From positions 95,890-159,889 of the IMG/VR virus record IMGVR_UViG_3300020048_000024: a stretch of DNA of 64,000 nt; one strand, written 5' to 3'. Source of the stretch: a virus. The position numbers were made by a program, and so were the translations under genes. The notes beneath the pieces are model-generated. The model worked only from the letters and a program-made list of their open reading frames with translations. It was not told the DNA's origin and did not search any database. The number at the start of each line of letters is the position of its first letter. Position 1 is the first letter of the stretch. Below, in pieces: positions 11,364 to 50,143 of this stretch.

Positions 11364-11522
11364 ATGAGCAAAATTCGTTGTGTGCAGTGTCAGATCAATT
11401 TTAAGAATTACTTTACATTTTCTCAACACAATTGTGTCGTAAAAGAAGAAGAAATGTCATCAAAAGAGTTGTTGCGCCGTTACAACACTTCAAAAATACC
11501 CATTGACGATAAGTCCGACTAG
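11364..11522 (+). CDS. small C2HC zinc-finger protein (52 aa; not in ORF track)
   Basis: MSKIRCVQCQINF.....QHNC. Confidence 0.55.
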   Translation: MSKIRCVQCQINFKNYFTFSQHNCVVKEEEMSSKELLRRYNTSKIPIDDKSD

Positions 11523-11561
11523 TGATATAATATACACATACACTAGAGAAAAGGACAGAAA
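11470..11561 (+). promoter_or_regulatory. repeated early promoter cassette, copy A
   Basis: TGTTG-N8-CAACA (11470-11487); TTGACG-17-TATAAT; then ATACACATACACTAGAGAAAAGGA. Confidence 0.85.
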
Positions 11562-11693
11562 ATGCTTGCTATTGATACTCGGTCTAATCGTGTGGTTCGT
11601 GTAATTGGTCGTACTATTTTGAAGGATTTCTTAGTACGTTTGCCGTCTGGAACACGAGATTCTGTGCCTGTTGCTTACATTAAACTGTTGTAA
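11562..11693 (+). CDS. small early protein (43 aa; not in ORF track)
   Basis: MLAIDTRSNRVVRV...; lies between two promoter cassettes, with SD. Confidence 0.7.
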   Translation: MLAIDTRSNRVVRVIGRTILKDFLVRLPSGTRDSVPVAYIKLL

Positions 11694-11771
11694 AAATACA
11701 ACACTGTTATTTGACAATAAATCCACTTTACTGTACAATGTACACTTACACTAGAGAAAAAGGAACAGTAC
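11686..11771 (+). promoter_or_regulatory. repeated early promoter cassette, copy B
   Basis: TGTTG-N8-CAACA (11686-11703); TTGACA-17-TACAAT; TACACTAGAGAAAAAGGA. Confidence 0.85.
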
Positions 11772-11978
11772 ATGACTAAAGCACGCAAGCCCACTCATAT
11801 CAAAGCGTTGAACGTAGAACTCATGGAACTCTTTCGTCAGCACAAAGTAGGGTTGATCACTGACATTGAGTTTCTTCAATACTGTCAAGAGATTCAAGAC
11901 TCTTACGCTAAGTTAGATATGACTGGGCTGTACGATGGCAATGGTATTCGCTTCACTAGCAACCCTTTTGTTAAGTAA
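11772..11978 (+). CDS. hypothetical early protein
   Basis: strong promoter and SD. Confidence 0.75.
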   Translation: MTKARKPTHIKALNVELMELFRQHKVGLITDIEFLQYCQEIQDSYAKLDMTGLYDGNGIRFTSNPFVK

Positions 11979-32263: not shown

Positions 32264-32307
32264 CATTGTTACTAATTGTTTTGAATTTATCTTATTAAGA
32301 CAAAATG

Positions 32308-32314
32308 ATAAATA
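32308..32314 (+). promoter_or_regulatory. late promoter motif ATAAATA (also at 25667, 37995, 42137, 48605, 48830, 49667, 50175 and minus 54342-54348)
   Basis: matches core of T4 late consensus TATAAATA; recurs before late-type genes. Confidence 0.75.
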
Positions 32315-34357: not shown

Positions 34358-34993
34358 ATGAAATCACATGAATTTATCTTGAAAGAAACACAACTAGATG
34401 AACTAATTAGTATTAGACCTCAGTTGAAAAAGAAAATAAACCCGACTCAACCTATAGGTGCGCCGGGAAAACGTGGCGGTGATTGGTTTGATATATTAAT
34501 TGGATATGGATTCGGTCCTATAGGCAATGGTGCGTTCGGGACAGTGTGGGATCATCCTAAATTTTCTTATGTACTCAAAATTTTTAAATCTAACGACGAA
34601 GCTTACAGAAGTTGGGTTAAAGTTTGTATGAATCATAAAAATAATCCGCATTTCCCTAAATTCGTTAGTACTAAAGTATGGTCGGTTACTCCCATAGTAT
34701 CGGCAATTAGAATGGAAAAATTAAGTCCATATTCAAGCGGAGACTACATAGGATTTTCGACAGTAATAAATAGACTTTCTATTTCAGATATAGTCAACCC
34801 AAATTACGAATGGAATGATGCTTATGGAAAGCCCTCACAATGGGATGAATACTGCTCTACCCACCCATTATGGATTCCAGCTCTAAAAATAACAGATGAA
34901 TTTATAACTTCTTATGGATATGCAAAAGATATACACACGGGAAATTTTATGATGCGTGGCGATGATATTGTTATAACTGATCCGGTGGTATAA
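34358..34993 (+). CDS. protein kinase, T7 gp0.7-like
   Basis: GNGAFGTVWDHP..YVLKI, MEKL, DIHTGNFM, ITDPV; leader MKSHEFILKE. Confidence 0.85.
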   Translation: MKSHEFILKETQLDELISIRPQLKKKINPTQPIGAPGKRGGDWFDILIGYGFGPIGNGAFGTVWDHPKFSYVLKIFKSNDEAYRSWVKVCMNHKNNPHFPKFVSTKVWSVTPIVSAIRMEKLSPYSSGDYIGFSTVINRLSISDIVNPNYEWNDAYGKPSQWDEYCSTHPLWIPALKITDEFITSYGYAKDIHTGNFMMRGDDIVITDPVV

Positions 34994-34997
34994 AAAT

Positions 34998-35390
34998 ATG
35001 AGAGCAAAAGAATTCATCGTAGAAGATTTTTCAAAAGATACTGAGGCAGAACAAGTATCTAAAGCGATGCCTGCTACTTATGCCATTTCTAAATTACCAA
35101 ATAGTGATTTTTATAAACAATATAGATTCGGAGTAGCAATTGCTGCTGCTCGTAGCGAAGAAGCTAGAAAAAGCGAACCAGCTCCAACAATGGCGCCGGC
35201 GTCTATATGGGGTGAAAATGAAATCGTAGTAAGTTATGATTCTACTACGGCTGATGTTATTGACGCGGCTCTCAAAATAGTTGGATTAGCTCCAAAAGAT
35301 AAAAAATTAATTAGCACTAAAAAAAGCGAAGAAATGCCAACGGTGAATTATCAAAGCCCAGTTCAAGGATTTAAAGGATACGAGAGATAA
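34998..35390 (+). CDS. hypothetical protein with capsid-targeting-like leader
   Basis: MRAKEFIVE. Confidence 0.75.
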   Translation: MRAKEFIVEDFSKDTEAEQVSKAMPATYAISKLPNSDFYKQYRFGVAIAAARSEEARKSEPAPTMAPASIWGENEIVVSYDSTTADVIDAALKIVGLAPKDKKLISTKKSEEMPTVNYQSPVQGFKGYER

Positions 35391-35391
35391 A

Positions 35392-36045
35392 ATGTTTATA
35401 AACGAAATAACAGAATCTAGTCAAAATATATCACGAGGAATTCGTAGAGGACTAGTAGCATATAAAGATGATCGTAAAACTCAACTAGAAAAGCTTGCTG
35501 TAAAAAAAGCAATCAAGCATTGTCCCTATTATTTTGCATACGGTATGAATACCGATACAAAAAATATGATGGTACGAACTGGTGATAGCACTGATATGGG
35601 AGCAGCAACTTTACCCAGATTTCAGCTAGAGTTTAAAACTTACTGTGATGTGGTTCCTAGTAGTCAAAATGATGTCGTTGGAGTATTATGGGAAATGTCT
35701 GCTAATGGCCTACATCTATTAGATCAACGAGAAGGATATCCTACATTCTACGATAGAAAAGTTATGAGAATTAGAGGTCAAGATGGTATAACTTATCCAG
35801 CATGGGTATATTATATGACTGCTTCGTACTCAAAAGATGGACTCAAGCCCCCACCAAATAGTTATTGGGAAACAGTAAATAGAGGGTACAATGAACATGG
35901 GATTCCTACTGGTCAATTAGACGAAGCTTATAACAGAGCTTGGGACGAGTACGAAGAAAAGAATTACTATAAGCAATTAGACCTAAAAAAACAACAATCA
36001 AAATACAACGATCAATATGAGGATGATTACGATGGATATCTTTGA
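35392..36045 (+). CDS. gamma-glutamylcyclotransferase (GGCT/AIG2-like)
   Basis: YFAYGMN, V.GVLW, LDQREGYP..Y, AWVYYM, P...Y...V..GY; leader MFINEITE. Confidence 0.88.
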   Translation: MFINEITESSQNISRGIRRGLVAYKDDRKTQLEKLAVKKAIKHCPYYFAYGMNTDTKNMMVRTGDSTDMGAATLPRFQLEFKTYCDVVPSSQNDVVGVLWEMSANGLHLLDQREGYPTFYDRKVMRIRGQDGITYPAWVYYMTASYSKDGLKPPPNSYWETVNRGYNEHGIPTGQLDEAYNRAWDEYEEKNYYKQLDLKKQQSKYNDQYEDDYDGYL

Positions 36046-36370
36046 TATAATTAAAACAATAGAAAAAGATTGGGCAATTATAGTGGCAGTATTTGCTTTT
36101 GGTGGATTTTGGTGGCAAGGTAAAGCTTGGTTCGAAAAAATGTCTAAAACACTAGACGCTGTTGGAAAAGTTCACGACGATCAAAATGAAACAATGGCTG
36201 AACAAAATTCAATGTTAGATAAAATATTATTTAAAACTGAAAATTTAGAAATTAGAACTTCTAAAATAGAAGAATCAGTTGAACAAATTCACGATAAAGT
36301 TCATGAACAGGAGATCAAGTTAGCTGTTTTAGAAACTTCACATAATCGTGCTAGAACAGGTAAAATGTAA
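36032..36370 (+). CDS. TM plus coiled-coil protein (possible holin-like)
   Basis: N-terminal TM helix; heptad repeats; GAGG SD. Confidence 0.65.
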   Translation: MDIFDIIKTIEKDWAIIVAVFAFGGFWWQGKAWFEKMSKTLDAVGKVHDDQNETMAEQNSMLDKILFKTENLEIRTSKIEESVEQIHDKVHEQEIKLAVLETSHNRARTGKM

Positions 36371-36372
36371 AA

Positions 36373-37251
36373 ATGAAAATTAACGAAATTGTTACCGAGG
36401 CAGTTAAACAAAGATTGGATCCTAAGTGCTGGAAAGGTAAGCATAAAGAGGGCACTAAGATCAAAGGTGGTGTTCGAGTTAATAATTGTGTACCAAATGA
36501 AAGTCTACAGGAATTTGCTTCAAGCGACAAAGATAGAGGCGATGATGGAGGAGATGAAGGATTCCCACGCAGACAGCCAAAGTTCAAACAAGGAGATGTA
36601 GTTTGGATCGAAGCAAACCCACCCAAGCATCGTAGTCATTTTGCTAGTAATTGCCCTGCCATTGTTATTGATTGTAGTCCTAAAGAAAGCGACCATGATG
36701 ACATAGTTTACCCAAGTCTTGATAAACACATGAATTCTGATGACATTGAATACTGGGTCAATAGTGCTCGTGAAGAAGCGGCTCGACAGCCTGAATATGG
36801 CTTGATAGCATTGCAAAGAGGAGATGTGTATAAAAGTTGGTGGTATAACGAGGATAATCTGATATTGATTCCAAAAGGAACTGATCCTGTTAAATTGTGC
36901 AGCAAGGGCGATACTGAATCTTATGATCAATTACCAGCTAAAGTTAAATCTTTATTAAATAGAGGATTAGGTCATGAAGATGTGACAGAAACCGCGGCTT
37001 GGCAAAAGAAGGCTGGAAAGAACAAGACAGGTGGTCTAAATCAAAAAGGTGTTGATTCATATCGTAAAGAACATCCAGGAAGTAAACTACAAACAGCAGT
37101 AACTACCAAGCCAAGTAAACTAAAGCCCGGTAGCAAAGATGCAAAACGTCGCAAAAGTTTTTGTGCTAGAATGTCTGGAGTTAAAGGGCCAATGAAAAAA
37201 GATGGTAAACCTACTCGAAAAGCACTAGCGTTAAGAAAGTGGAATTGTTAA
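36373..37251 (+). CDS. composite basic protein: CWKG..NCVP motif plus DUF6321-like C-terminal domain
   Basis: leader MKINEIVTE; AAWQ..GKN..GGLN.KG..SYR...PGSKL..RRKSFCARM..LRKWNC. Confidence 0.7.
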   Translation: MKINEIVTEAVKQRLDPKCWKGKHKEGTKIKGGVRVNNCVPNESLQEFASSDKDRGDDGGDEGFPRRQPKFKQGDVVWIEANPPKHRSHFASNCPAIVIDCSPKESDHDDIVYPSLDKHMNSDDIEYWVNSAREEAARQPEYGLIALQRGDVYKSWWYNEDNLILIPKGTDPVKLCSKGDTESYDQLPAKVKSLLNRGLGHEDVTETAAWQKKAGKNKTGGLNQKGVDSYRKEHPGSKLQTAVTTKPSKLKPGSKDAKRRKSFCARMSGVKGPMKKDGKPTRKALALRKWNC

Positions 37252-37268
37252 TAAATGAAGTCGATTAA

Positions 37269-38012
37269 GTGAGATCAGAAGAATTTATTGTAGAAGGATT
37301 CAAGCATAATCTAGCAGCGGCAACAATGCTGGGATTAAGTTCATTGAGTAATCCCACTGCTAATCTACAGCCAGCAGAAGTTATGCCAGTTCAATCTACT
37401 CAGACAGTTGGTAAATCATTACCGCTTGGAAAAAATGGAGTAAGTAACGAAGAAATTGCAGCTACAAGAGCATTATTACAAACACCCACTGCTAAAATGT
37501 TGTATAGAGAAGCGATAAAAGCTGGCATTAAAGGCACAGAATTGGCACAATTTTTGGCACAATGTGCTCATGAATCAAGAGACTTTCAAGATATCAAAGA
37601 ACGAGGCGGCACGTCATATTTTATGAAGCTATATGATAAGCAATATAGTCCACAAACTGCTGCTGATCTGGGTAATACTAAAAATGGTGATGGAGCAAAG
37701 TATTTTGGACGCGGATATATTCAATTATCAGGAAGAGAAAATTACACTAGAGCGAGTAAGGCACTGGGATTAGACCTAGTGAATCATCCTGAGTTAGTAG
37801 AAAGACCAGAAATTGCTGCTAAAACTTCAATTTGGTTTTGGCAAAACCGAGTGATAAAACGGTCAACTGATTTTAGTAATACTGCTGCTATGACTAAACC
37901 AATTAATAAAGGACTTCGTGATTTAGAAAAACGTCATGCCAAGTTTCTTGGATTTGATTATGTTATCAATGATAAAAGTAATGTAAAAGAACAGATAAAT
38001 AAAAGATCATGA
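37269..38012 (+). CDS. glycoside hydrolase family 19 (chitinase-like muramidase)
   Basis: AQFLAQCAHES, LGNT..GDG..Y.GRG.IQL.GR.NY, WFW, T..IN.G; leader MRSEEFIVE. Confidence 0.9.
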   Translation: MRSEEFIVEGFKHNLAAATMLGLSSLSNPTANLQPAEVMPVQSTQTVGKSLPLGKNGVSNEEIAATRALLQTPTAKMLYREAIKAGIKGTELAQFLAQCAHESRDFQDIKERGGTSYFMKLYDKQYSPQTAADLGNTKNGDGAKYFGRGYIQLSGRENYTRASKALGLDLVNHPELVERPEIAAKTSIWFWQNRVIKRSTDFSNTAAMTKPINKGLRDLEKRHAKFLGFDYVINDKSNVKEQINKRS

Positions 38013-39940
38013 GATACACTGATTTTAAAGCTATTATTAATGAAGTAGCAATGAACCCTACTGCTTATGCTCAGAGTATTGAGCAAGCACAGCAACATGG
38101 CGTCAAGATTGGTTTTGAATTTGAAGTATGTGTGCCTAGTGCTGTCTTTACGAGCAAAGAATCTAAGATCAAAACTATAAATTACAACTTAGTTGACGAA
38201 TTACTTTATGATGCAGACACAATAATAGATATGTCTCTTTATCAATATACTTCTGGAGATTCTGATCTGAGAAAGTTTGATAGCTTGTTTACTCCAAAGC
38301 CTAGAAAAAGTAAATATCCTAATCTTACTACTGCATTCAACACACTTTTAGAAAAAAGAGTCGAGCGAGCAAAAGAGCTATTTTATAAAATTCCCGAAGA
38401 TGTACGAGAAGAGTATATACCAGTTGCAAAAGCTAGACTTAGAAGATATACCGACGTCAACGATCAAAGAAATCCTCTGATGTTTGTACGAATACTTGCC
38501 CATTTGTTGTTGATAAATTCCAGAAGAGAAGCAAACCGACCATATAAAGATGCTCTAGAAGAGATGACTCAGCTTAGTTTTCATCAGTTAGATGTTCTTA
38601 GAGAAATGTTTCCTGAAACAAGTGTAGATAGAATTTTGGCTAGTATGTCAAAATATTTTGACTACGATCCGGAAAAAGTATATAATGAATATGATTTAGC
38701 TGAACATCTAGATGATGATGAAGATGATTATGAAGATTATCCGGGATACAGTAAAGCTAGCAAAGCTGTTGCTACTGCATTACGATCTACGATGAATAAA
38801 AAAGTTGTAATATTTGATGAATATCATGAAGATGATAAAAGACTAGATCGTTGGTACATTGAACCAGATGGTAGCTTGAGTCCAAACGAGCAGGAAGATG
38901 CTTGTGTCGAAATAGTAGGCCCACCACAAAAAGCTGCCAAAGCACTTGATTCATTAAAGCGATTCTTTGAAATGGCTCAACAGTTAAATCTTTATACTAA
39001 TCGTTCGACTGGTCTACATATCAATGTTAGTATTCCAAAAAATATTGATGTACTAAAGTTAGCTGTATTCACTGGTGACCAATATGTGCTAAAGCAGTAT
39101 GAAAGATTAGAAAATAACTACTCTCGTAGCGTCATGAGAGATTTAAGTGGTAATTATAATATGTCACCTGATTCGTCTAATTCGGTCGCTTTCAGTCAAG
39201 AAAAAACAGGCTCTGGTAAAAATGTATTTGGTCAAAAGAAATTTTCAAAAAATATTGAATTAGATCAGATTCAAGATATTGCTGATCGTATAAGCAATTC
39301 TCATACTGCTAGTATCAGCAATGAAAATGAAAATTATATTAGTTTTAGACATGTCGGCGGTGATTATTTAAAAGATCATCAAGGTATCGTCAATGTAGTA
39401 GGACGTTTTGTTCGCGCCATGATTATCGCTAGTGATCCAAATGCCTATCGTAATGAGTATCTAGCTGCAGTGGCCAAGTTAGCCGCTCCTGCTATGGCAT
39501 CAACTGGCTTTGATGCAGAAATTCTTAGAATTAAACAAGAAGGTCTTTCAATAATCACTGTGTATCTTTATAAAGATGGTCGTACTAATTTTAAAACATT
39601 ATTATCTAGAGCAGGTTATCAAGCTTCTCAGAATATTATAATTGGATCAATAGAGACCAATAGTGAAGAAGCTTATAACGTAATGGGAGCAAACGCACGT
39701 AACGAAAGTATGAAATTAAGATTAGCCGATTCGCCTATTACTAAATTTGCCAAGGTTGTTATACGACCAACAAATTTTACAGCAAGTGAGTATTATAGAC
39801 AACGAGTTGGTGGAGCATTAGGATACGTAGGAGACGGATATTCTCTTGAGATACTTGATAAATTACCACCTACCGATCCTTATGTGCAACAAGTTATCTT
39901 GCAGATGCGAAGAGATCGTTTTAAAAATAAGAAAAATTAA
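38009..39940 (+). CDS. putative amidoligase (COOH-NH2 ligase, GS fold), paralog 1
   Basis: GFEFE, WYIEPDGSL, EIVGPP, STGLHINVS, YISFRHVGGDY. Confidence 0.8.
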   Translation: MRYTDFKAIINEVAMNPTAYAQSIEQAQQHGVKIGFEFEVCVPSAVFTSKESKIKTINYNLVDELLYDADTIIDMSLYQYTSGDSDLRKFDSLFTPKPRKSKYPNLTTAFNTLLEKRVERAKELFYKIPEDVREEYIPVAKARLRRYTDVNDQRNPLMFVRILAHLLLINSRREANRPYKDALEEMTQLSFHQLDVLREMFPETSVDRILASMSKYFDYDPEKVYNEYDLAEHLDDDEDDYEDYPGYSKASKAVATALRSTMNKKVVIFDEYHEDDKRLDRWYIEPDGSLSPNEQEDACVEIVGPPQKAAKALDSLKRFFEMAQQLNLYTNRSTGLHINVSIPKNIDVLKLAVFTGDQYVLKQYERLENNYSRSVMRDLSGNYNMSPDSSNSVAFSQEKTGSGKNVFGQKKFSKNIELDQIQDIADRISNSHTASISNENENYISFRHVGGDYLKDHQGIVNVVGRFVRAMIIASDPNAYRNEYLAAVAKLAAPAMASTGFDAEILRIKQEGLSIITVYLYKDGRTNFKTLLSRAGYQASQNIIIGSIETNSEEAYNVMGANARNESMKLRLADSPITKFAKVVIRPTNFTASEYYRQRVGGALGYVGDGYSLEILDKLPPTDPYVQQVILQMRRDRFKNKKN

Positions 39941-42106
39941 ATGAGAGCTACTGAATTCACAACTTCAAACATTGACAATCAATTACTACCTATTAATGAA
40001 GTAGCAATGAACCCTACTGCTTATGCTCAGAGTATTGAGACAGGAGAATCATCTGGCGTTCTTATTGGATTTGAATTTGAAGTATGTGTACCTCAAGCTG
40101 CTATTAAATCATATCATGAAGCTGAAAGAGCAGCAGCATATTCAGCAGCACTAGCTGTCCCACAGTTGCCAGTTACTGCTCAACGAGTAGGACGTATTAT
40201 TAAACAAAATCCATCATCACTATGGCGCGGGTCGCAGGGTGACGATATGATAAAGTTTGATAGATATTTTACCCCAATCGACACTGCTAATTATCCTAGT
40301 ATGACTGCGGCCAAAAAATCTACTTTAGATAAAAGAGTTGAAACTACTAAAGAGATTATAAGTCAGTTACCAGCAGATTTATTACCAGGATTTAAAAGAC
40401 TTTCACGAGCTAAGATACAACGTAGAATTAGAACTAATAATTATGGGTATGAATTAAGTCCGGAACAGAAAGAATTAGAGGTGTTGGCCGATATCGCAGC
40501 AAGATACTATAAACATGTTCGAACTGATCCTCAGTATCATGCTTCAAGAGGACTTGAGAATCGATCTGATTCGTGGCGACGAGAGCATCGTGCTTCTAAT
40601 TATAATTCAGATGAGGCTGTAGCCAATAGAGCACTAGATGAGTTAATTAATAATCTTTGGGGTTTGAATGGCGATGTTAGAGTAAGTGAAATATTTAGAA
40701 TGATGTGGCCTGATGTATCTGAAGTCTTTAGATCCGAAGATAATGTAGTTTCAGCAGTGATGCATAATATTAATGGTTTATTTACATATGATCCACTAGA
40801 GGTATATAATGCATATTCTCTAGCAGATATTGATCCAGATGTTCCAAATGCACTACGACCAAATATGTCTAGAAATCCACCGAGTGATTTTCAAGGATAT
40901 AGAGGAGCAGCATTAGTATTAAATTCTTCACTTAAAAAGACAATGAATTCCGAGGTTATTGTATATGATCGCTATCATCAAGAAACTAAAGACATGACTA
41001 GCTGGTACATTGAACCAGATGGTAGCTTGAGACCCAATGGCTTTGATGGCGCTGCAGAGATAGTAGGACCACCTGAATCACCAAAAGCAGCTCTTACTTC
41101 TTTACGAAAATTCTTTACTATGGCTAGCGAATTAAAACTCTATACCAGCAAAAGAAATAACACTGGCTTGCATATTAACGTTAGTATTCCCAAAGAATTA
41201 GATGTACTTAAATTAGCAGTTATGTTAGGTGATGAATATATACTAAAGAAATTTGATCGTGAAAATAATAATTATGCCAAAAGTGTAATGAACTATCTAA
41301 AAACGCCCAACTCCGAAAATGTCGCTAGCACTGTATCGTCTGATATTAAAACTGCTTACGGTAGTACAGAATCTAAAATCAATTTGGATTTGTTGAAACA
41401 AATTGCAGAACGTATATCAGGTGATCACTTTTCCAGTATAAATTGGACTGGAAAATATATTAGCTTTAGACATGCAGGTGGTGACTATTTAAAAGATTAT
41501 AACGAAATATTAAATGTAGTAGGGCGTTTTGTGCGAGCTATGGTCATTGCTAGTGACCCCACAGCTTATCGTAATGAATACTTAAAAGCAGTAGTAAAGT
41601 TAGTAAATCAACGTCAACCTGTTGTACTCTCAGATAATGCTAGATATATTAAATATATTAAAGAAAATGGACTTGTTGTAAAAACAATTGACATGTATCT
41701 AAAGAAAGATAGCTTTAATAATCCATCTATACAAAATTTTCAAACAGTACTGTCTATAGATTACAAACTTGTACCAGAAGTCAACTATTCAATAACTACT
41801 AGTAGCGAACTAGCTCAACAAAAACTAATTACAAAAAGTAGTAGTAGTGGACGCGCTCGTGTATTAATGTCAGATCCAGAAAAGTCTCCCGTTCAACAGT
41901 TTGCTCATTGTGAAATTATTCCGTATACAATGGATATGGCTCAAGTTGAGCGCCAAAATGAATATCGAGGCGTACATGTTCAATACACTTTTGGAGGAGC
42001 AATAGCTGCTGGATATAAATATATTGCCGTTAAGGTAATTCCAGCCACTGATCCTCGTGCAATTAAATTTATGCGTGCATTGAGAACAACACAGCCAAGA
42101 TACTAG
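39941..42106 (+). CDS. putative amidoligase, paralog 2
   Basis: same motif set; longest insert. Confidence 0.8.
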   Translation: MRATEFTTSNIDNQLLPINEVAMNPTAYAQSIETGESSGVLIGFEFEVCVPQAAIKSYHEAERAAAYSAALAVPQLPVTAQRVGRIIKQNPSSLWRGSQGDDMIKFDRYFTPIDTANYPSMTAAKKSTLDKRVETTKEIISQLPADLLPGFKRLSRAKIQRRIRTNNYGYELSPEQKELEVLADIAARYYKHVRTDPQYHASRGLENRSDSWRREHRASNYNSDEAVANRALDELINNLWGLNGDVRVSEIFRMMWPDVSEVFRSEDNVVSAVMHNINGLFTYDPLEVYNAYSLADIDPDVPNALRPNMSRNPPSDFQGYRGAALVLNSSLKKTMNSEVIVYDRYHQETKDMTSWYIEPDGSLRPNGFDGAAEIVGPPESPKAALTSLRKFFTMASELKLYTSKRNNTGLHINVSIPKELDVLKLAVMLGDEYILKKFDRENNNYAKSVMNYLKTPNSENVASTVSSDIKTAYGSTESKINLDLLKQIAERISGDHFSSINWTGKYISFRHAGGDYLKDYNEILNVVGRFVRAMVIASDPTAYRNEYLKAVVKLVNQRQPVVLSDNARYIKYIKENGLVVKTIDMYLKKDSFNNPSIQNFQTVLSIDYKLVPEVNYSITTSSELAQQKLITKSSSSGRARVLMSDPEKSPVQQFAHCEIIPYTMDMAQVERQNEYRGVHVQYTFGGAIAAGYKYIAVKVIPATDPRAIKFMRALRTTQPRY

Positions 42107-42150
42107 ATTTCAAATAACTAAGTAGTAGCGAAAAAGATAAATACATTATC

Positions 42151-44163
42151 ATGAGATACTTAGACTTCAAATCATCACAGTTAAACGAAATTGCAATGAA
42201 TCCTACGGCATTCAAGCAAAGTATGTCCAATTCCGATCAAGTTAAGGTTGGATTCGAATTTGAATGTATTGTACCAGAAGCATCATTGAATGCGTGGAAA
42301 CAATCTTTAAATGATTCACAAAAAACAAAAGAAGAAATAATAGCTGATATTAAAACAAAGAATATTAAGGAATTTCGTCAACTAATTCCTGGACTAATTG
42401 ACATGAATAATTTTTTCTTTCAGTATATTACGCCAAAAGACTCTACTGATGGTGTTTTAAAATTATATCGTCAAGATTTTTTTTCTACTAAATTTTATAA
42501 AGAGTTAAGCAAAACTCTTAGCGCACAGCTTAGAAAGACAAAACGTCAATACGCCGATAATGGATACTCTCCAACTGAAATAAAAAATCAGATTCAACGA
42601 ACTAAAGATGAAGTCAAAAGAATTTTCAATGATAAATTACAAGTTGATTTATCATCTAGATCAAAAAGAAAATTAACATATGACGAAATTACTATGATAT
42701 CTTATGCATTATATACTGATTCAAATTGGGCTGCAGTTGAACAAACTTCTAGAATTTTAAGACACTGGATTGATCAGAATGCAGGTGTGTCAAGTGATTC
42801 ATTTACCCAATGGGTAATGGAAACTTACGGCACTGATAATATGGGTGAGCTATTAGCAACTAAATGGAAATTTGCTGCTGGTGGAACTACTAAGTTATTA
42901 AATTATATACGAAATAGAGATTCTAATAGAATTAGCAATGGATATAGTGGTACCAGCAAGATGATGAAAGCTGTATTTGAGCCAATATTTGGAGAAATGG
43001 TAGTATTCAATAACTATCATCAAGAAACAAAAAAACTAGATCGTTGGTATATTGAACCAGATGGTAGCTTAGGAGGTCAGGGAAATGATCAGGGTCTAGA
43101 GATAGTAGGACCACCTGAACCAGCTCCGATAGCATTGTCTACGTTGAGTAAATTTTTCACTACAGCAAAACAATACAACATATATACTAATAGTAGTACT
43201 GGATTACATATTAATGTAAGCGTTCCAGATAAATTAGATGTGCTTAAATTAGCACTAATTCTAGGTGACGAATACGTTTTAAATTTATTTGGACGAGGCC
43301 CAGGAACTCCAGGATCACGTTATGCTCGTAGTGTAATTATTAATCTCAAAAAAGAAGTACAGTCTCGCTCAAATCGTACTCAAGAAGAAATGATGAAGAT
43401 GCTTCCAAAAATAGCACAAAATATTTCTTCAGATCACTTTGCTAGTATAAACTTTAACGGAAAATATGTTAGTTTTAGATCAGCTGGAAATGATTATCTT
43501 AATAATCCTGAGGGAATAATTAACACACTAGGTCGTTTTGTTAGAGCAATGATTATTGCTAGTGATCCAACTGCTTACAAAGAAGAGTATTTGAAAAAAT
43601 TATATCAACTTACCTATGTACCTACTACTACACCAAATGCATGGCAAGCTATCATGAAATATAGAGAAACTGGAGTTTCTGCTATTAGAATTAATTGTGT
43701 TACTCTAGATACAGAAAAAGGCTTCAGTAAAAATTCTATCATTGAACGAGCAATTCGTCGAGGGTTGATTAATACTGATGGATGGTCTGCACCAATGTAC
43801 GTTGCAGATCCATCACAGTGGACTAACAATGTTGACATTCAGATATTGCTAGGAAACGAAGATATTAAGAGTGAGATGCTTGCTGGGACCAACGGATTTG
43901 GTCCAGAGACAACAGAAAAACTTGTAAATACTCCAGCAAATCAATATTATTCAATTATGATTTATCCAAAAACAGTATTGGCTGCTAATAATTTTGCAAA
44001 ATCTGAAATTCATAGTCGTGCATTTAATGCCGCTGGTGACTCTAGTATTCCATTTTACGGTAGAGTATTTAAAGTTAACATATCTAGTGGTGATGGAAAA
44101 TTATTCTCTGATATTATATCTAGTATGGCTAAAAGTGCAAAATCAACTACGGATAATACATAG
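42151..44163 (+). CDS. putative amidoligase, paralog 3
   Basis: same motif set; own ATAAATA promoter. Confidence 0.8.
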   Translation: MRYLDFKSSQLNEIAMNPTAFKQSMSNSDQVKVGFEFECIVPEASLNAWKQSLNDSQKTKEEIIADIKTKNIKEFRQLIPGLIDMNNFFFQYITPKDSTDGVLKLYRQDFFSTKFYKELSKTLSAQLRKTKRQYADNGYSPTEIKNQIQRTKDEVKRIFNDKLQVDLSSRSKRKLTYDEITMISYALYTDSNWAAVEQTSRILRHWIDQNAGVSSDSFTQWVMETYGTDNMGELLATKWKFAAGGTTKLLNYIRNRDSNRISNGYSGTSKMMKAVFEPIFGEMVVFNNYHQETKKLDRWYIEPDGSLGGQGNDQGLEIVGPPEPAPIALSTLSKFFTTAKQYNIYTNSSTGLHINVSVPDKLDVLKLALILGDEYVLNLFGRGPGTPGSRYARSVIINLKKEVQSRSNRTQEEMMKMLPKIAQNISSDHFASINFNGKYVSFRSAGNDYLNNPEGIINTLGRFVRAMIIASDPTAYKEEYLKKLYQLTYVPTTTPNAWQAIMKYRETGVSAIRINCVTLDTEKGFSKNSIIERAIRRGLINTDGWSAPMYVADPSQWTNNVDIQILLGNEDIKSEMLAGTNGFGPETTEKLVNTPANQYYSIMIYPKTVLAANNFAKSEIHSRAFNAAGDSSIPFYGRVFKVNISSGDGKLFSDIISSMAKSAKSTTDNT

Positions 44164-46106
44164 TGAGATACTCAGATTTAAAATCTACTGTAGTAGAAGT
44201 AGCGATGAATCCTACTGCGTATGCTCAATCAATGAAGCAGGCAGATGAAGTTAAAATTGGATTTGAATTTGAAGTATGTGTTCCTCAATATCGTATTGCT
44301 GATGCGCCCGAACTTGTAAAAACAATAACGGCAGAAACTGTTCAAGATATTATTACATATAATGACATGTTAATATCTAGTGGATTCGACGAGTATATAA
44401 GTCCAACAGTGTTTGACAAACTATTTAAATTTAAGGCTCCTAGCAAATATAGCAACATGACAGAAGTACTTGATGATTTACGAAAACAAGCATTGCCACA
44501 AATTTTAAAACTTTTTCATGAAATACCAGAGAACAAACGAGTAGAGGCAATTAAAGAAGCTAAAGATATTATGACGCGCAGCAATAGACGTAATTCTTGG
44601 AAATCATATGGATCTAAAGAATTGTATTTTGCTTATCTATTTGGGTATGAAATATATCTTCATAGTGGTCGTAGTGATACTCTTAAACGTATTGGATTAA
44701 ATATTCGTAATTTAGCAGATATTAGATGGTCGGAATTGCTCAATACAGCATTTGAATCTAACAATCTTTCAAACGAACAAAATATTCAGGATAATCTGAC
44801 AACGTATTTTACATTTGATCCTGATACAGTATATAATACTCTAAATTTAGCTGAATATAAAGCAGATGAAGATGATTATGATTATGATGATGATAATGAT
44901 TATGGATATGACTATTTGGGTGCAGTTAAAGTATTAAAACCAGCATTAGAAAAAACAATGAATTCTGAAGTAACTGTATTTTCAAGTTATCATCAAAGAA
45001 CTAAAAATATGACTAGCTGGTACATTGAACCAGATGGTAGTTTAAATACCAAAGAGTATGATGATGGTGCTGCTGAAATAGTAGGACCACCACAACCCGC
45101 AGCTAAAGCACTTGAAACACTAGCAAAATTTTATAGTATGGCTAAAAAATTACATCTGTATACTAATGATTCTACTGGATTACATATAAACATTAGTATC
45201 CCACAAAATATTGATGTATTAAAACTAGCTGTATTTTCTGGAGATCAGTATGTGCTACAACAGTTTAACAGACTGGATAATAATTATGCTGCAAGTGTTA
45301 TTCGTGGTTTAAAGACTGGTAATGACTGGCATCCTAGTGGATATCCTGGAATTACACCAAGAGCAGCAAATGATGAAGGATTGACAAAGCTAAAAATTAA
45401 ATCAATCGAGGATCTTGCTAAATCATTAACAAACAGACATACAGCTAGTATTACTAATAACGGAAAGTATATAAGTTTTCGTCAAGTTGGCGGAAATTAT
45501 CTAAATGATTATGATCAAGTTCTGAATGTAGTTGGAAGATTTGTTCGGGCTATTATTATTGCCAGTGATCCCAACGCTTATCGTAAAGAATATCTTGCTG
45601 AATTGGGTAAGATGATTATGCCAACATCTGATAATAGTATTGATTTACAAATTGAGCAACTAAGAAAAGAAGGAATGAAAGTAACTGTTGGTTGCATGTA
45701 CGTTAGTAGCTTTAGTATCGGTAGAAGCAGAGCTATGAAATGGGAAACTTTAATAAGAAATATATTTTTTGATCCGCAAGAGTACTCAAACACTGTTACA
45801 CTTTTAAGTCTAGACAAGAATAGCGAAGAAGCTAAATTAAAATTGTCTTTTACTAGAAGTGATATTAGTGCTGCTAAACAAAGACAATTACAAGCTGCGG
45901 ATGTTAAAAACTTTGCAAAGTTTGTCGTTCCAACAGATCAGATTCTTAAGTCAATGTCAAATTTGTTCGATCGGGTGCATACCAATTCAATTGGTTCTGA
46001 GGGCCAATGGGAAAGATTTACACTCACTAACACAGTTTTACCTTCAACTGATCCAATAGTTCAAAAGTTAATATTAAGTTTAAGAAAACAAAAATTAGGA
46101 AAATAA
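44163..46106 (+). CDS. putative amidoligase, paralog 4
   Basis: same motif set; GTG start overlapping previous stop. Confidence 0.8.
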   Translation: MRYSDLKSTVVEVAMNPTAYAQSMKQADEVKIGFEFEVCVPQYRIADAPELVKTITAETVQDIITYNDMLISSGFDEYISPTVFDKLFKFKAPSKYSNMTEVLDDLRKQALPQILKLFHEIPENKRVEAIKEAKDIMTRSNRRNSWKSYGSKELYFAYLFGYEIYLHSGRSDTLKRIGLNIRNLADIRWSELLNTAFESNNLSNEQNIQDNLTTYFTFDPDTVYNTLNLAEYKADEDDYDYDDDNDYGYDYLGAVKVLKPALEKTMNSEVTVFSSYHQRTKNMTSWYIEPDGSLNTKEYDDGAAEIVGPPQPAAKALETLAKFYSMAKKLHLYTNDSTGLHINISIPQNIDVLKLAVFSGDQYVLQQFNRLDNNYAASVIRGLKTGNDWHPSGYPGITPRAANDEGLTKLKIKSIEDLAKSLTNRHTASITNNGKYISFRQVGGNYLNDYDQVLNVVGRFVRAIIIASDPNAYRKEYLAELGKMIMPTSDNSIDLQIEQLRKEGMKVTVGCMYVSSFSIGRSRAMKWETLIRNIFFDPQEYSNTVTLLSLDKNSEEAKLKLSFTRSDISAAKQRQLQAADVKNFAKFVVPTDQILKSMSNLFDRVHTNSIGSEGQWERFTLTNTVLPSTDPIVQKLILSLRKQKLGK

Positions 46107-46107
46107 T

Positions 46108-47556
46108 ATGAGATTAAAGGAATTCACGACAGAAAGTTTACAAACCGTTCATGAAGTGGCGATGAATCCTACTGCCTTTGCTCAATCAATGGAGCAGGGC
46201 GAATCTGAAGGCGTTAAGATTGGATTTGAATTTGAGATATGTATTCCTTATTCTTTTTGGTCAACTCAAAATGGTAATGATGAATTCATTAATAATGATG
46301 AAGACAATGACTACGAAGATGACGATGGAACTGATTTTGAATATGATGACAACGATGACAGTGATTACGAGTACTACGATAGAAAGTACGATGCGGCAAG
46401 TAATAAATTAAAATCTGTACTTAAAAGCAAAATGGGCTCTAAAGTCGTAGTATTCAATGAATATCATCAATATACAAAATCACTAGATCGTTGGTATATT
46501 GAACCAGATGGAAGTTTATCTCCTAATGAGCGTGAAGATGCTGCTCTTGAAGTAGTAGGCCCACCTGAACCTCCTAGCAAAGCACTAGACTCACTTAAAA
46601 AGTTTTTTGGAATTGCTGAACAATATAAATTTTATAGTAATAATTCAACCGGTCTACATATCAATGTCAGTTTACCCAAAGACCTGGATGTGTTAAAATT
46701 GGCTGTATTCACCGGCGATCAATATATACTTAAAAAATTCGGTCGTGAAAACAATGGCTATGCTAGTGGTGTTATGAAAAGTCTGACTAGTTCTGATTTT
46801 TCTTCAGCAGTTACTAAACCGAATATGTCAACTGAAATTAAATTAGCGACAGTACAAAAAATTGCTAGAGATATTAGTAGAAGTCATACTGCTAGTATTA
46901 GCTTTAATGGAAACTATGTAAGTTTTAGACACACAGGTGGCGACTATTTAAAAGATCATCAAGATATTGTTAATGTAGTAGGACGTTTTGTACGAGCAAT
47001 GGTCATTGCTTGTGATCCCACAGCATATCGTAATGAGTATCTAGCTGCTGTAGCTAAACTAGTGGCCCCAGCTATGGATAGTACTTCGCTTGAAGCAACA
47101 ATTGAAAAAATAAAAAAAGAAGGTTTGCCATCTGCTAGTATTTGTTTATATTCAAAAGATCATACTCCTACAATAGATGACTTAAATAAAACAACAACAC
47201 CTAGAACTAGAGTTAATTTATTTGTCAGTGAGCTATGTGATATACAATTAGTTAAATCTGGTGATTATGCCAAAACTAAATTAATTGCAAATTCAAGACC
47301 AAATGGTAGTGCTAGCAATGCAATGAGTACGGCTGAGCCTGATAAATTTTCTACTTTTATGGCAATACCAACTAAACTTCAGTCTATCTTATCGATCAAT
47401 CAATATCGTGGTAAGAAAGTTTTAATCTGGGCAGATAATGGAAATCAAGGATTTTATTATGTAAGAGTAGTTAATCTTCCACCTACTGATCCCAGTGTGC
47501 AAGCGGTATTAGTAAAATTACGTAGAGAAGCAATTAGACAAAGAACTGGACAATAA
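46108..47556 (+). CDS. putative amidoligase, paralog 5 (insert reduced to acidic linker)
   Basis: same motif set; D/E/Y-rich insert of about 45 aa. Confidence 0.8.
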   Translation: MRLKEFTTESLQTVHEVAMNPTAFAQSMEQGESEGVKIGFEFEICIPYSFWSTQNGNDEFINNDEDNDYEDDDGTDFEYDDNDDSDYEYYDRKYDAASNKLKSVLKSKMGSKVVVFNEYHQYTKSLDRWYIEPDGSLSPNEREDAALEVVGPPEPPSKALDSLKKFFGIAEQYKFYSNNSTGLHINVSLPKDLDVLKLAVFTGDQYILKKFGRENNGYASGVMKSLTSSDFSSAVTKPNMSTEIKLATVQKIARDISRSHTASISFNGNYVSFRHTGGDYLKDHQDIVNVVGRFVRAMVIACDPTAYRNEYLAAVAKLVAPAMDSTSLEATIEKIKKEGLPSASICLYSKDHTPTIDDLNKTTTPRTRVNLFVSELCDIQLVKSGDYAKTKLIANSRPNGSASNAMSTAEPDKFSTFMAIPTKLQSILSINQYRGKKVLIWADNGNQGFYYVRVVNLPPTDPSVQAVLVKLRREAIRQRTGQ

Positions 47557-47574
47557 TCAATTTGTCCAAAATGT

Positions 47575-47603
47575 TTGACTCTATACTACTACTGTAGTAT
47601 TAT
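47575..47603 (+). promoter_or_regulatory. sigma70-type promoter
   Basis: TTGACT-17-TATTAT. Confidence 0.55.
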
Positions 47604-47609
47604 AACAAC

Positions 47610-47792
47610 ATGACTAAAAATTCTGACAACTCAACATATGAAGTAATTACACAGATTGATCCTGAAACTGGAGACACTGTAATTCCATTACCTCCAGAAC
47701 TGTTACAAAGAATGGGATGGAAAGAAGGTGACGAATTAGATTTCAACTATGACAAAGAAGGAAGACTAGTAGTTACTAAGCGTGGTGGATAA
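47610..47792 (+). CDS. AbrB/MazE/SpoVT-like DNA-binding protein
   Basis: GD.VIPLP.ELL..MGWKEGDEL.F......LVV. Confidence 0.8.
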   Translation: MTKNSDNSTYEVITQIDPETGDTVIPLPPELLQRMGWKEGDELDFNYDKEGRLVVTKRGG

Positions 47793-48166
47793 TGAATACA
47801 ATAAATTCTAATACACTTACCATAGGAGCAGGTCTTGGTGGAAGTTCTGGGCAATCTCTTATCGCTTCAACCATTGGCCCGACATGGTCTAGTTCCACTA
47901 TGTCTGATCCCGGACTTTTTGTCAAAGGAAACGCTGAGATCACGGGCACATTAACAGTTGGTGGGCAAGAAATCACCAAAACAATTACCAAAACAATCGA
48001 CGAACGATTATCTGCCATTGAAGAACGACTGTGTATTCTTAGAATCGATGAAAAATTGGCCGACCGTTGGGAAGAATTGGGTAAATTACGTAAACAGTAT
48101 CGTGAATTGGAACAAGAATGCTGGGAAAAGGACGAAATAGTCCGAATTCTCAAAGGTATACCTTGA
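47792..48166 (+). CDS. hypothetical protein
   Basis: ERL..IEERL.IL...LE..WEEL coiled-coil. Confidence 0.75.
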   Translation: MNTINSNTLTIGAGLGGSSGQSLIASTIGPTWSSSTMSDPGLFVKGNAEITGTLTVGGQEITKTITKTIDERLSAIEERLCILRIDEKLADRWEELGKLRKQYRELEQECWEKDEIVRILKGIP

Positions 48167-48191
48167 CAAATAATACAGACTGTGCTACAAT
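48163..48191 (+). promoter_or_regulatory. sigma70-type promoter
   Basis: TTGACA-17-TACAAT. Confidence 0.7.
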
Positions 48192-48209
48192 GTACTATAA
48201 TCTACTATT

Positions 48210-48602
48210 ATGGTATATACTATGACAATGCACTTGACACACTTCACTACTACTGGCAAACGTAAAGGTAAGTTTAAGTACGCTTCGGCAGAAGCCAAGC
48301 GTGTGGCAGAACAGCTAGAGCAAGACTGGAAAGCACTAAAGATATCTTATAGTGCTCCATCTGTCAAAAAGCCCATCAAAAATGCCAGAACACTTGGAAA
48401 AAGTTTACCCACTATTCCACAACGTGGCACATTATTGTCGGCACCATCGCTCAATTCTGGAGTTGGAACTGCCGTAAAAGCAGATATTCCGATATATACT
48501 GGCAACAAAATGATTGGTATTGGTGTCTTACACAAGTCTAATGCTGTACCTGTTTTTTCAGATGAAGAAGCGGTAGAAATTTCTAAAATGCGTAGAGGCT
48601 AA
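48210..48602 (+). CDS. conserved hypothetical protein of T4-like phages
   Basis: YTG..MIGIG.LHKSNAVPV...MRR. Confidence 0.8.
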   Translation: MVYTMTMHLTHFTTTGKRKGKFKYASAEAKRVAEQLEQDWKALKISYSAPSVKKPIKNARTLGKSLPTIPQRGTLLSAPSLNSGVGTAVKADIPIYTGNKMIGIGVLHKSNAVPVFSDEEAVEISKMRRG

Positions 48603-48617
48603 CGATAAATAAACTAT

Positions 48618-48833
48618 ATGGCCAAAGAAGAAGCAATTAAAATAGACGGCACGGTAACAGAACTGTTACCAAATGCTATGTTCAGAGTACAACTACCAAA
48701 CGAAAAACTTATAATAGGTATTATCTCTGGAAAAATGCGTCAGCATGGGATTAAAATACTAATGGGCGACATTGTAGAAGTAGAATTTTCTCCCTATGAT
48801 CTAACTCGCGGAAGAATAACTCGTCGCAGATAA
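48618..48833 (+). CDS. infA: translation initiation factor IF-1
   Basis: MAKEE.I...[12 protein letters not shown]....ISGKMR...[18 protein letters not shown]. Confidence 0.96.
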
Positions 48834-48841
48834 ATACTATC

Positions 48842-49666
48842 ATGCGAATTCAAGAGTTACTTACCGAATCTACTTATCATAAACTACCTGCTATAAAGAC
48901 AGTATTTGAGGCTGATTGGGATAATGAACCAATCAAGCATTACACTGACGATGAGCAACGCGAGATACATAGAAGTGAGGAACTCCCATATACTAGTGTA
49001 GATAGTAGTATTAACAAATATACTACAAATCAAGGTAAGCATTGGAATAATTTCTTACATCGTCACTATCGTGGTCGCTCTACAAACACAGATCACAGTA
49101 GATACGCCAATCATGTAATATCAACTGATGCGGCTTTGACTAAAAATACTCTTAAAAAAGACTATGTGCTATACACTGGACTAAATGAAAGTCCAGTATT
49201 GGCATTTGAATTATACAATCAGCCAACTGATAAACCATTGACTGTTCATTTACCTGCGTATACTAGTACTACAACTTCGTGGAGAGTGGCGGTTAGATTT
49301 GCACACAATTATCTTAGTAGTAAAGAGACCGATGCTCATTATGGCGGCAAACCTGTAGAAAAATATGATCGTACTCGTCATGAATTATTAGATATTAATG
49401 GAGAAAAAATAAAAGAACTCCCTGATAATCCTAATAAACGATCAATTGACATATTACGAATTTTTGTACCAGCCGGAACCACTGGCGGAAGCGTAAGAGA
49501 TATGTCATATAATTCAGAAGAATTTGAAGTACTACTACCGCGAGGGCTGAATGTAATAATCAGTCCAAAACCTCATGTAATGTATCAATTCGGAGCAGAC
49601 ATATATGTTTGGAATGCAAAAGTCGTGGGTCACGATCCGCAACCAGTTGAACTTATCAAAGCATAG
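48842..49666 (+). CDS. ADP-ribosyltransferase (R-S-E / VIP2 / Alt-like)
   Basis: INKYT..WN.FL, LYTGL (Arg position is Thr), YTSTT, EFEVLLPRG; leader MRIQELLTE. Confidence 0.8.
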   Translation: MRIQELLTESTYHKLPAIKTVFEADWDNEPIKHYTDDEQREIHRSEELPYTSVDSSINKYTTNQGKHWNNFLHRHYRGRSTNTDHSRYANHVISTDAALTKNTLKKDYVLYTGLNESPVLAFELYNQPTDKPLTVHLPAYTSTTTSWRVAVRFAHNYLSSKETDAHYGGKPVEKYDRTRHELLDINGEKIKELPDNPNKRSIDILRIFVPAGTTGGSVRDMSYNSEEFEVLLPRGLNVIISPKPHVMYQFGADIYVWNAKVVGHDPQPVELIKA

Positions 49667-49678
49667 ATAAATACTATC

Positions 49679-50143
49679 ATGCAAATTCGAGAAATCATAA
49701 CAGAGGTTTTTAATAGTCAGCCCTATCCATTAAAAGTGGAACCTGATCCCAGTCGTTATGAACAGCATCTTAGTGCAGTTACCGACGACGGAAGACCAAT
49801 TGACATATTCTTAAACTATCATTGGCCAGCCGACAAAAAATCAAGATATATAGGAGTGGTATTTGAGGTAGACAAATCACATCAAATCACTGGAAAAGGC
49901 GATGCTCTTAGAATTTTAAACACTGTACTGTACGCTGTCACTGCAGAAGCCAATGAATTAGAACCTGCTTATATTGCTTTAGCGGCAGATTCGCTACACT
50001 ACGACAGTTATCGTGCATTGGCTAGAAGATTTGGAGGTCAATATAAATTACTTCCAACGAATAAAATTCCAGACATGTTTTTACAACATCTAAGACCTGA
50101 TCAAGATGCAAGTTCATTGTTTATACTAAAAAGAGATAATTAA
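49679..50143 (+). CDS. hypothetical protein with capsid-targeting-like leader
   Basis: MQIREIITE; ITGKGDA.RI..TV motif; late promoter. Confidence 0.75.
   Translation: MQIREIITEVFNSQPYPLKVEPDPSRYEQHLSAVTDDGRPIDIFLNYHWPADKKSRYIGVVFEVDKSHQITGKGDALRILNTVLYAVTAEANELEPAYIALAADSLHYDSYRALARRFGGQYKLLPTNKIPDMFLQHLRPDQDASSLFILKRDN

Follow-up and report, generated by a model that had tools for sequence, protein, structure and literature searches.

The final 64 kb (64,000 nucleotides, called the window below) of a 159,889-bp viral contig from IMG/VR (IMGVR_UViG_3300020048_000024), whose CheckV completeness of ~45% puts the genome at ~350 kb, carries five adjacent genes on the + strand that encode proteins of one common design. 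An earlier note on this DNA had read them, from the letters alone, as tandem paralogs of an amidoligase of the glutamine synthetase (GS) fold behind a leader resembling capsid-targeting sequences, and had placed them at 38009-47556; the open reading frames (ORFs) lie exactly there. We show that their core models as a GS fold and is linked to the Amidoligase_2 family, and we propose that these proteins travel in the phage head. The genes and their parts are as follows (window positions).

38009..39940, + strand: paralog 1 (P0001), 643 aa, PF12224 score of 24.7 bits against a cut-off of 22; leader, residues 1-12; N-terminal helix and GFEFE strand, to residue 44; helical insert, 45-246; GS-fold core, 247-485; C-terminal domain, 486-643
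38009..38044, + strand: leader of paralog 1, MRYTDFKAIINE, with a predicted gp21-type site, I-N-E|V, at its end
38141..38746, + strand: helical insert domain of paralog 1 (residues 45-246), modelled alone
39941..42106, + strand: paralog 2 (P0002), 721 aa; leader, residues 1-20; longest insert of the array, 53-319
42151..44163, + strand: paralog 3 (P0003), 670 aa; C-terminal domain without P.TDP
44163..46106, + strand: paralog 4 (P0004), 647 aa; GTG start
46108..47556, + strand: paralog 5 (P0005), 482 aa; a 45-residue acidic, Tyr-rich linker in place of the insert
39941-40000, 42151-42189, 44163-44198 and 46108-46155, + strand: leaders of paralogs 2-5

All five proteins follow the same order, i.e. 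a short leader, [VLI]xE, [VI]AMNPTA, GFEFE, the insert, the core and the C-terminal domain. Across the paralogs the core carries WYIEPDGSL, E[IV]VGPP, TGLHIN[VI]S, Y[IV]SFR and GRFVRA..IA.DP.AY..EYL (alignment A1, of the five paralogs), and P.TDP lies near the C-terminus of four of the five, paralog 3 being the exception. These motifs had all been quoted before, and translation and alignment A1 verified every one of them. Whole-protein identity to paralog 1 is 31-50% in this alignment and the cores are 44-59% identical over the ten paralog pairs (BLASTP E 1e-67 to 1e-101), a similarity far above chance. The inserts of paralogs 1-4 span 202-267 residues, and 42% of the 45 residues in the linker of paralog 5 are Asp or Glu. 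The genes are tightly packed in a single orientation, and all five ORFs are intact both in this phage and in a sister phage (contig L094, 171,681 bp), where the GTG start and the leader of paralog 4 recur in the orthologue P0075. No sixth copy was found in the contig (~45% of the genome), six-frame profile search included; the six-frame search with PF12224 gave a score of 25.6 bits.

In Pfam, paralog 1 scores above the cut-off of PF12224 (Amidoligase_2), paralog 5 below it (19.6 bits), and paralogs 2-4 have no match to this family. Since 28 of the 35 close relatives match PF12224 at E <= 0.01 (best 1.7e-8), the match is weak but consistent across relatives. An AlphaFold2 model of P0005, made from a 35-sequence alignment, has a core pLDDT of ~90. 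Its comparison by VIA-align with 48,161 PDB representatives gave ten top matches that are all glutamine synthetases (Z 7.6-9.7, 155-201 residues), the best being 2ojw_A (Z 9.7, 162 residues, rmsd 3.1, model residues 21-300); YbdK, PafA, Dop and the gamma-glutamylcysteine synthetases rank below GS in the list. The Foldseek top match is also a GS (probability 0.98), a weak agreement, and in the ESM Atlas the models closest to that of P0005 belong to viral clusters with PF12224 in 94-100% of the members. Pfam, the structure matches and a motif alignment with canonical amidoligases thus bear out the assignment to Amidoligase_2 and the GS fold, and with ten best matches that are all GS the core passed the modelling check proposed for it. 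At the sequence level, the paralogs match none of the GS Pfam families, and the profile of alignment A2 (35 sequences) finds no relative among all PDB sequences and no GS match at E <= 1. With glutamine synthetase proper they share only the fold; membership by sequence fails. PHROGs holds no family for any of the five, and NCBIfam gave nothing meaningful for them.

Among isolated phages these proteins are rare, and in metagenomes they are numerous. Megablast found no match to the 9.5 kb array in 50,697 phage records, and the only isolated phages with homologues are RsoM2USA (344 kb) and Atu_ph07 (490 kb), T4-related jumbo phages with one gene each, 30-32% identical to the paralogs over the core. 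An exhaustive phmmer search recovered 1871 clusters at E <= 1e-3 and 1374 at E <= 1e-10 (representatives at 50% identity), and several of the metagenomic relatives lie on contigs of 338-354 kb. The subclade defined by the SFR and HxN motifs described below comprises more than 1800 sequence clusters, almost all of them from metagenomic jumbo phages.

The active site combines conservation with two substitutions. The N-terminal G-x-E-x-E strand, whose two Glu bind metal in the family, reads GFEFE in each of the paralogs, and its aligned counterpart in a canonical Bacillus phage amidoligase is IGIEIEF. This canonical protein (phage 055SW001 gp40) has IEIEF, LELVSPP, HVHH and EFR, to which GFEFE, E[IV]VGPP, LHIN[VI]S and SFR correspond in the paralogs. 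Hence, in place of H-x-H the first His is retained and the second is Asn, and in place of E-F-R the Glu is Ser and the Arg is retained. The E-x-R motif of GS contributes its Glu to the second metal site, as a ligand, and its Arg to the binding of phosphate or substrate. The motifs are FEFEV, HINIG and EFR in Atu_ph07 gp196 and FEAEV, HVSVS and EFR in RsoM2USA gp26; HxN or HxS is common to the wider jumbo-phage clade (Atu_ph07, RsoM2USA, P0125, P0236). Of 195 relatives, 187 have Ser in place of this Glu and 180 combine SFR with HxN; EFR is the form seen in Atu_ph07, RsoM2USA and the canonical proteins. Both substitutions had been spotted in the paralogs beforehand, and the motif alignment and this count confirm them. 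The remainder of the site is strongly conserved: GFEFE, IEPDGS, E[IV]VGPP, the His, SFR and GRFVRA are invariant or nearly so among relatives, and the E-x-E, two further Glu, the His and two Arg are invariant in alignment A2. Three observations lead us to read the SFR/HxN active site as probably adapted rather than dead: the Ser is itself invariant, so are the other catalytic-type residues, and dN/dS is lowest in the core (see below).

The earlier note had seen the inserts as highly divergent, hypervariable and swappable. Divergent they are, but they are not unrelated: BLAST detects homology among the inserts of paralogs 1, 2 and 4 (E 1e-12 to 6e-4). The insert of paralog 3 has no similarity to these three that BLAST could detect and falls in a minor cluster of four members. 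Among 162 stand-alone relatives, a single BLAST-linked cluster takes 127 of 156 inserts and 148 of 162 C-terminal domains. The sister phage carries the same five-gene array (651, 719, 672, 635 and 472 aa), and its orthologous inserts are collinear with those studied here, with almost no indels. They are 66-92% identical for paralogs 1-4; the corresponding values are 43% for the acidic linker of paralog 5, 90-96% for the core and 85-96% for the C-terminal domain. Between these orthologues, pooled Nei-Gojobori dN/dS is 0.19 in the core, 0.56 in the insert and 0.61 in the C-terminal domain, which by this measure places the core under strong purifying selection. Judging from homology and rates together, the inserts are one old helical domain that evolves fast under weaker constraint, neither exchanged between close relatives nor made of unrelated cassettes, and the notion of swappable hypervariable modules is not supported. 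Nor is diversifying selection shown for whole inserts, the mean dN/dS of 0.56 being below 1 (these are whole-region means only). Both the insert and the C-terminal domain change at a higher rate than the core and hence are likely the parts that set specificity or bind partners.

Modelled alone, the insert of paralog 1 is all-helical (pLDDT 88.5, pTM 0.83). It has no Foldseek match, no useful look-alike in the ESM Atlas and no convincing solved relative. A chain of the PhiKZ capsid reconstruction (8y6v_G) is its top match and was discarded as a homologue, since the score (Z 7.2, 81 residues, 12% identity) is below the level trusted for helical domains; the match is curious given the predicted location in a jumbo-phage head, but untrustworthy. 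The C-terminal domain has weak RRM-like matches (Z ~5, VIA-align on the P0005 model). Strongly acidic, Tyr-rich tracts lie directly before the catalytic core at 38700-38750, 44870-44915 and 46255-46390; DDDEDDYEDY, EDDYDYDDDNDYGYDY and, in paralog 5, the linker in its full 45 residues are examples. The family consensus retains D..DDY at this place, and such tracts might act as linkers, as pseudo-substrates or as mimics of DNA.

The five paralogs are not the outcome of a recent burst of duplication. In a tree of 193 cores (FastTree alone) they are not monophyletic, which rules out a lineage-specific expansion: each is joined first by its orthologue from the sister phage and next by proteins from other phages, and the core of paralog 3 groups with cores from long polyvalent proteins, multidomain proteins of 1000-1500 aa. 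Related viral contigs have 1-4 copies within 20 kb of a family member, five being found only in the sister contig, and several other large contigs retain one copy of the paralog-1 type and one of the paralog-2 type. The tree thus argues for ancient paralogs and, as the paralogy is both old and maintained, for non-redundant roles. Large recent gene-conversion tracts between paralogs can be dismissed given a nucleotide identity of 66-85% in conserved segments and a longest identical word of 49 nt; this word, shared by paralogs 1 and 2 in the AMNPTA region, might be a short conversion tract. Between the two sister arrays (38009-47556 and L094:1917-11419), dS varies several-fold among segments of one gene, e.g. 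from 0.39 in the insert of paralog 2 to 0.10 in its C-terminal domain, which hints at mosaic homologous recombination between related phage lineages.

The leaders would link these enzymes to the virion. They have a variable N-terminus of 10-20 residues of the form M-[KR]-x-x-[DE]-[FL]... and close in [VLI]-x-E. In T4, the internal proteins IPII and IPIII start with MKTYQEFIAE|A and Alt starts with MELITELFDE, to which MRYTDFKAIINE, MRLKEFTTESLQTVHE and the other leaders of the array are comparable. The first ten residues of IPIII are enough for packaging in T4, and the T4 protease gp21 cuts after L/I-x-E (PMC9026906). Among 162 distinct sites of the family, where [VLI]-x-E stands before [VA][AP]MNP, Glu occupies P1, the residue before the predicted cut, in 161 and an aliphatic residue (Val, Leu or Ile) occupies P3 in 158; 26 of the 162 are internal, at domain junctions of larger fusion proteins. 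The leader has a pLDDT below 50 in the P0005 model, as expected for a linear motif, and the first helix begins directly after AMNPTA. This last motif is confined to the five paralogs within the contig and is conserved family-wide, including inside fusion proteins, and hence belongs to the domain and not to the leader. The phage encodes a gp21-like prohead protease of the Peptidase_S77 family (G000:C1:13542-13985, 89.8 bits) and a T4 gp23-type major capsid protein (11088-11978, both in contig coordinates). The leader thus resembles, as a short motif, the T4 capsid-targeting sequence and ends in a predicted gp21-type site, in a phage that encodes a gp21-like protease.

The same leader is found on about eight neighbours that are not homologous to the ligases. 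It occurs in 12 of the 15 ORFs of a block around the array and in 6 of the 110 elsewhere in the contig (Fisher p = 4e-10). The block and its surroundings contain the following features (window positions).

30320-32197, - strand: full-length Hsp70/DnaK homologue (861 bits), directly upstream of the block
32321..50143, + strand: leader block, about 15 genes, about 13 of them with an M..[DE][FIL]..[ILV]xE leader
within the block, + strand: sigma region-4-like protein, 678 aa, leader MKITDIISE
within the block, + strand: kinase-like protein, leader MKSHEFILKE
from 34998, + strand: gene with leader MRAKEFIVE, no family found
35392..36045, + strand: GGACT/AIG2-like gamma-glutamyl cyclotransferase, leader MFINEITE|S
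36373-36520, + strand: N-terminus of a DUF6321 protein, leader MKINEIVTE
37269-38012, + strand: GH19 lysozyme/chitinase, leader MRSEEFIVE, between the DUF6321 gene and paralog 1
48842-49666, + strand: ADP-ribosyltransferase (ADPrib_exo_Tox), leader MRIQELLTE
from 49679, + strand: gene of 154 aa, leader MQIREIITE, no family found
32307-32314, 37994-38001, 42136-42143, 48829-48836 and 49666-49673, + strand: GATAAATA, resembling a T4 late promoter

Several of these genes are homologous to known families of host-modifying enzymes (the ADP-ribosyltransferase, the kinase-like protein, the GH19 lysozyme), and the ADP-ribosyltransferase, with a leader similar to MELITELFDE, is likely an analogue of T4 Alt. 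The block as a whole looks like a predicted arsenal of ejected proteins. A few further leader genes lie upstream in the contig (e.g. G000:C1:73457-74704 and 77956-78504, both on the - strand). The GH19 gene is missing at this place in the sister contig, where the DUF6321 gene adjoins the first ligase. Behind the DUF6321 leader lies a small Cys-bearing module (KQRLDPKCWKGKHKEGTKIKGGVRVNNCVPNE, within 36373-36520), and two of the amidoligase relatives (P0040, P0036) carry a near-identical module as their N-terminal extension, so small modules are shuffled among leader-bearing proteins.

Expression of the block may also follow T4. The late promoter of T4 is TATAAATA, and GATAAATA stands 5-7 nt before the ATG of the genes at 32321, 38009, 42151, 48842 and 49679 (7 nt for paralogs 1 and 3), which makes it a predicted late promoter. 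No clear Shine-Dalgarno sequence is visible between GATAAATA and the ATG of these five genes, and transcripts starting there may be nearly leaderless.

A link to gamma-glutamyl cyclotransferases (GGCT), which the family was expected to have, is borne out both by synteny and by fusion. The GGACT gene lies ~2 kb upstream of the array and such a gene also adjoins the array in sister contigs; in at least six relatives (P0031, P0072, P0076, P0079, P0111 and P0116) a GGCT/AIG2 domain is fused to the N-terminus of the ligase. GGACT is therefore likely a functional partner of the ligases. Other relatives are found within giant proteins with SLT, LysM and nucleotidyltransferase-type domains or a second, more canonical Amidoligase_2 domain, an SLT/LysM multidomain organization typical of ejected virion proteins.

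Evidence from virions, indirect for the paralogs, comes from one homologue. Atu_ph07 gp196 (AUZ94978, 57.9 kDa), which its authors labelled only as a hypothetical protein, was detected in virions by ESI-MS/MS with 14 peptides and 30.2% coverage, compared with 20 peptides for the portal protein (PMC6102473 and its supplement). It has ~31% core identity to the paralogs and a similar leader (LTE|LKMN), and its gene lies beside the portal gene. Like the paralogs, gp196 and RsoM2USA gp26 (AVH84955) have a leader, a start of the form L-x-E|LKM[ND], and HxN or HxS; unlike them, they are single-copy proteins of 500-523 aa with EFR and with other inserts and C-terminal parts. The proteomics of RsoM2USA covers the ten strongest bands only and is uninformative here. 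Given the resemblance to IPII, IPIII and Alt, the L/I-x-E-type site, the gp21-like protease and this distant homologue in virions, we still infer a capsid-targeting-like leader, as the note had done.

How far does this system resemble known ones? The Amidoligase_2 or COOH-NH2 ligase family, with its GS fold and its association with GGCT in phages, was reportedly described by Iyer, Abhiman, Burroughs and Aravind in 2009 (Mol Biosyst). The paralogs agree with it in the GS-like core, in the order of the G-x-E-x-E, E..SPP, His and x-F-R strands, in the GGCT linkage and in being common in phages. They differ from the canonical members (~290 aa with HxH and EFR, of the type of Bacillus phage 055SW001 gp40) by HxN, SFR, a helical insert of 200-270 residues after the first strand, a C-terminal domain of 160-190 residues, the head-targeting-like leader and up to five tandem copies. 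GS, gamma-glutamylcysteine synthetase, YbdK and PafA/Dop provide the best structural matches (model residues 17-320, Z 9.7 to 5.1). Such GS-fold carboxylate-amine ligases form an acyl-phosphate intermediate at the expense of ATP and then the amide bond, the chemistry expected of the paralogs, yet the latter lack sequence similarity to solved chains, have Ser for the Glu of E-x-R and appear to be devoid of the N-terminal domain of GS. With IPI-III and Alt of T4 they share a leader of ~10-20 residues, M-[KR]-x-x-[DE]-[FIL]..., that ends in [ILV]-x-E before a small residue, and the genome shares with T4 the gp21-type protease, the gp23-type capsid and an Alt-like ADP-ribosyltransferase in the block. 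Unlike the T4 internal proteins, the cargoes here are much larger (55-83 kDa), unrelated to them in sequence and encoded among ~13 such genes, known so far from sequence. Finally, relatives of the ligases are modules of proteins of 1000-2900 aa with SLT, LysM and nucleotidyltransferase domains, which recalls polyvalent proteins and the idea of co-delivered effectors, whereas here the ligase modules are separate genes, each with its own leader. The polyvalent-protein paper of Iyer et al. 2017 does not mention amidoligases (PMC5512222), and the SFR/HxN subclade is not discussed in the jumbo-phage and polyvalent-protein surveys of the searchable literature. The claim that no such system had been described fits this literature, but the association of amidoligases, GGCT and phages is itself old knowledge. 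As far as the searchable literature shows, what is new is a large subclade of jumbo-phage ligases that combines SFR/HxN with an insert and a C-terminal domain, the conservation of multi-paralog arrays, a putative leader for head targeting together with its cleavage site, and the detection of a member in virions.

We favour the following reading, to which we give a probability of roughly 0.55. It starts from the observed fold, family link, conserved catalytic-type residues, purifying selection and gamma-glutamyl cyclotransferase link, and predicts packaging and catalysis: the paralogs would be jumbo-phage Amidoligase_2 enzymes packaged in the head, trimmed by gp21, ejected, and able to ligate a carboxylate to an amine in the host. 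They would be made late in infection and carried by the 12-20 residue leader into the core of the assembling prohead, as the capsid-targeting sequence of T4 does for IPI-III and Alt. Cleavage by the gp21-like protease behind the invariant Glu of [VLI]-x-E would then produce mature proteins with [VI]AMNPTA at their start, and these would be ejected with the DNA alongside their kinase-like, ADP-ribosyltransferase, lysozyme and GGACT neighbours. Once inside the host, the ligases would spend ATP on linking a carboxylate, most likely that of a glutamyl or another acidic group, with an amine of host proteins, peptides or small molecules. Separate paralogs might serve different substrates or successive steps, with the helical insert and the C-terminal domain setting specificity, and GGACT might reverse or trim the gamma-glutamyl amides. 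In a bolder version, T4-like jumbo phages inject up to five ATP-dependent ligases as writers together with GGACT as an 'eraser', and so impose a novel host modification of amino-acyl or gamma-glutamyl type in the first seconds of infection, each insert and C-terminal domain choosing its own target; we find this conceivable but rather doubtful. Several observations weigh against the favoured reading. Packaging, cleavage and injection of the five paralogs are predicted from indirect evidence. The match of the leader is that of a short motif, and the conserved [VLI]xE could alternatively cap the first helix of the domain. In the virion data, gp196 is by its sequence a distant homologue with EFR and not SFR, and its detection might reflect contamination: the Atu_ph07 virions were purified with PEG only and yielded 112 unexpected proteins, including a topoisomerase subunit (PMC6102473). 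The canonical metal-ligand Glu is Ser and the second His is Asn throughout the subclade, so that catalysis may be altered or lost, and we found no substrate for any Amidoligase_2 protein in the searchable literature.

One might instead suppose that the paralogs are late enzymes that stay in the cytoplasm, where five ligases would work as an assembly line for a peptide, a gamma-glutamyl metabolite or a modification of phage proteins, with GGACT in the same pathway and the shared N-terminus serving translation initiation or regulation. The tight packing of the genes in one orientation fits such a pathway, linked but distinct peptide ligases often perform successive ligations (PMC4431377), and the ancient lineages that co-occur elsewhere, one of the P0001 type and one of the P0002 type, suggest non-redundant and possibly sequential roles. 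Yet, the same leader stands on non-homologous proteins with packaged T4 counterparts (the Alt-like ADP-ribosyltransferase, the lysozyme), the protease-type site that closes it is kept at internal domain junctions too, and a homologue has been detected in virions, so we regard this alternative as unlikely. As successive ligations are also compatible with packaging, only the part of it that denies packaging is truly a rival. We see a slightly smaller chance that the paralogs are pseudo-enzymes, i.e. bulk internal head or ejection proteins in which the GS fold has been retained for scaffolding or for binding (decoy, inhibitor) and ligase chemistry is absent. The subclade-wide Ser for the metal-binding Glu and Asn for the second His point this way, as do the large non-catalytic additions (insert, C-terminal domain, acidic tracts), and five copies would supply head mass. 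But the remaining catalytic-type positions are invariant in alignment A2, SFR and HxN go together in 180 of 195 relatives, the dN/dS of the core is 0.19, and an invariant Ser points to an adapted and not to a decayed site; the GGCT linkage and fusions also favour chemistry.

In viral metagenomic contigs, Pfam domains of amidoligases and amidotransferases are found together with genes for thymidine hypermodification (PMC8989533), so that the ligases could in principle attach amino acids or polyamines to modified pyrimidines of the phage DNA. This we consider very improbable. No such genes were seen beside the array (the contig was not searched for a 5-hmdU kinase or hydroxymethylase), the contig (~45% of the genome) has no GATase_6 domain (PF13522, the sole amidotransferase family searched), and the neighbours of the array are enzymes of the host-takeover type with head-targeting-like leaders.

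Amidoligase_2 enzymes are widespread in phages, and none has a substrate reported in the searchable literature. Some phages deliver ready-made activities to their host, such as ADP-ribosylation by Alt, anti-restriction by IPI and transcription by virion RNA polymerases. If the paralogs are indeed packaged and injected, ATP-dependent amide ligation would join this short list of phage-delivered protein activities. In addition, the simple rule of a leader followed by [VLI]xE predicts that ~13 genes in one block of a T4-like jumbo phage encode packaged effectors. Hence, the same rule could allow the ejected proteome of uncultured relatives to be read directly from their sequence.

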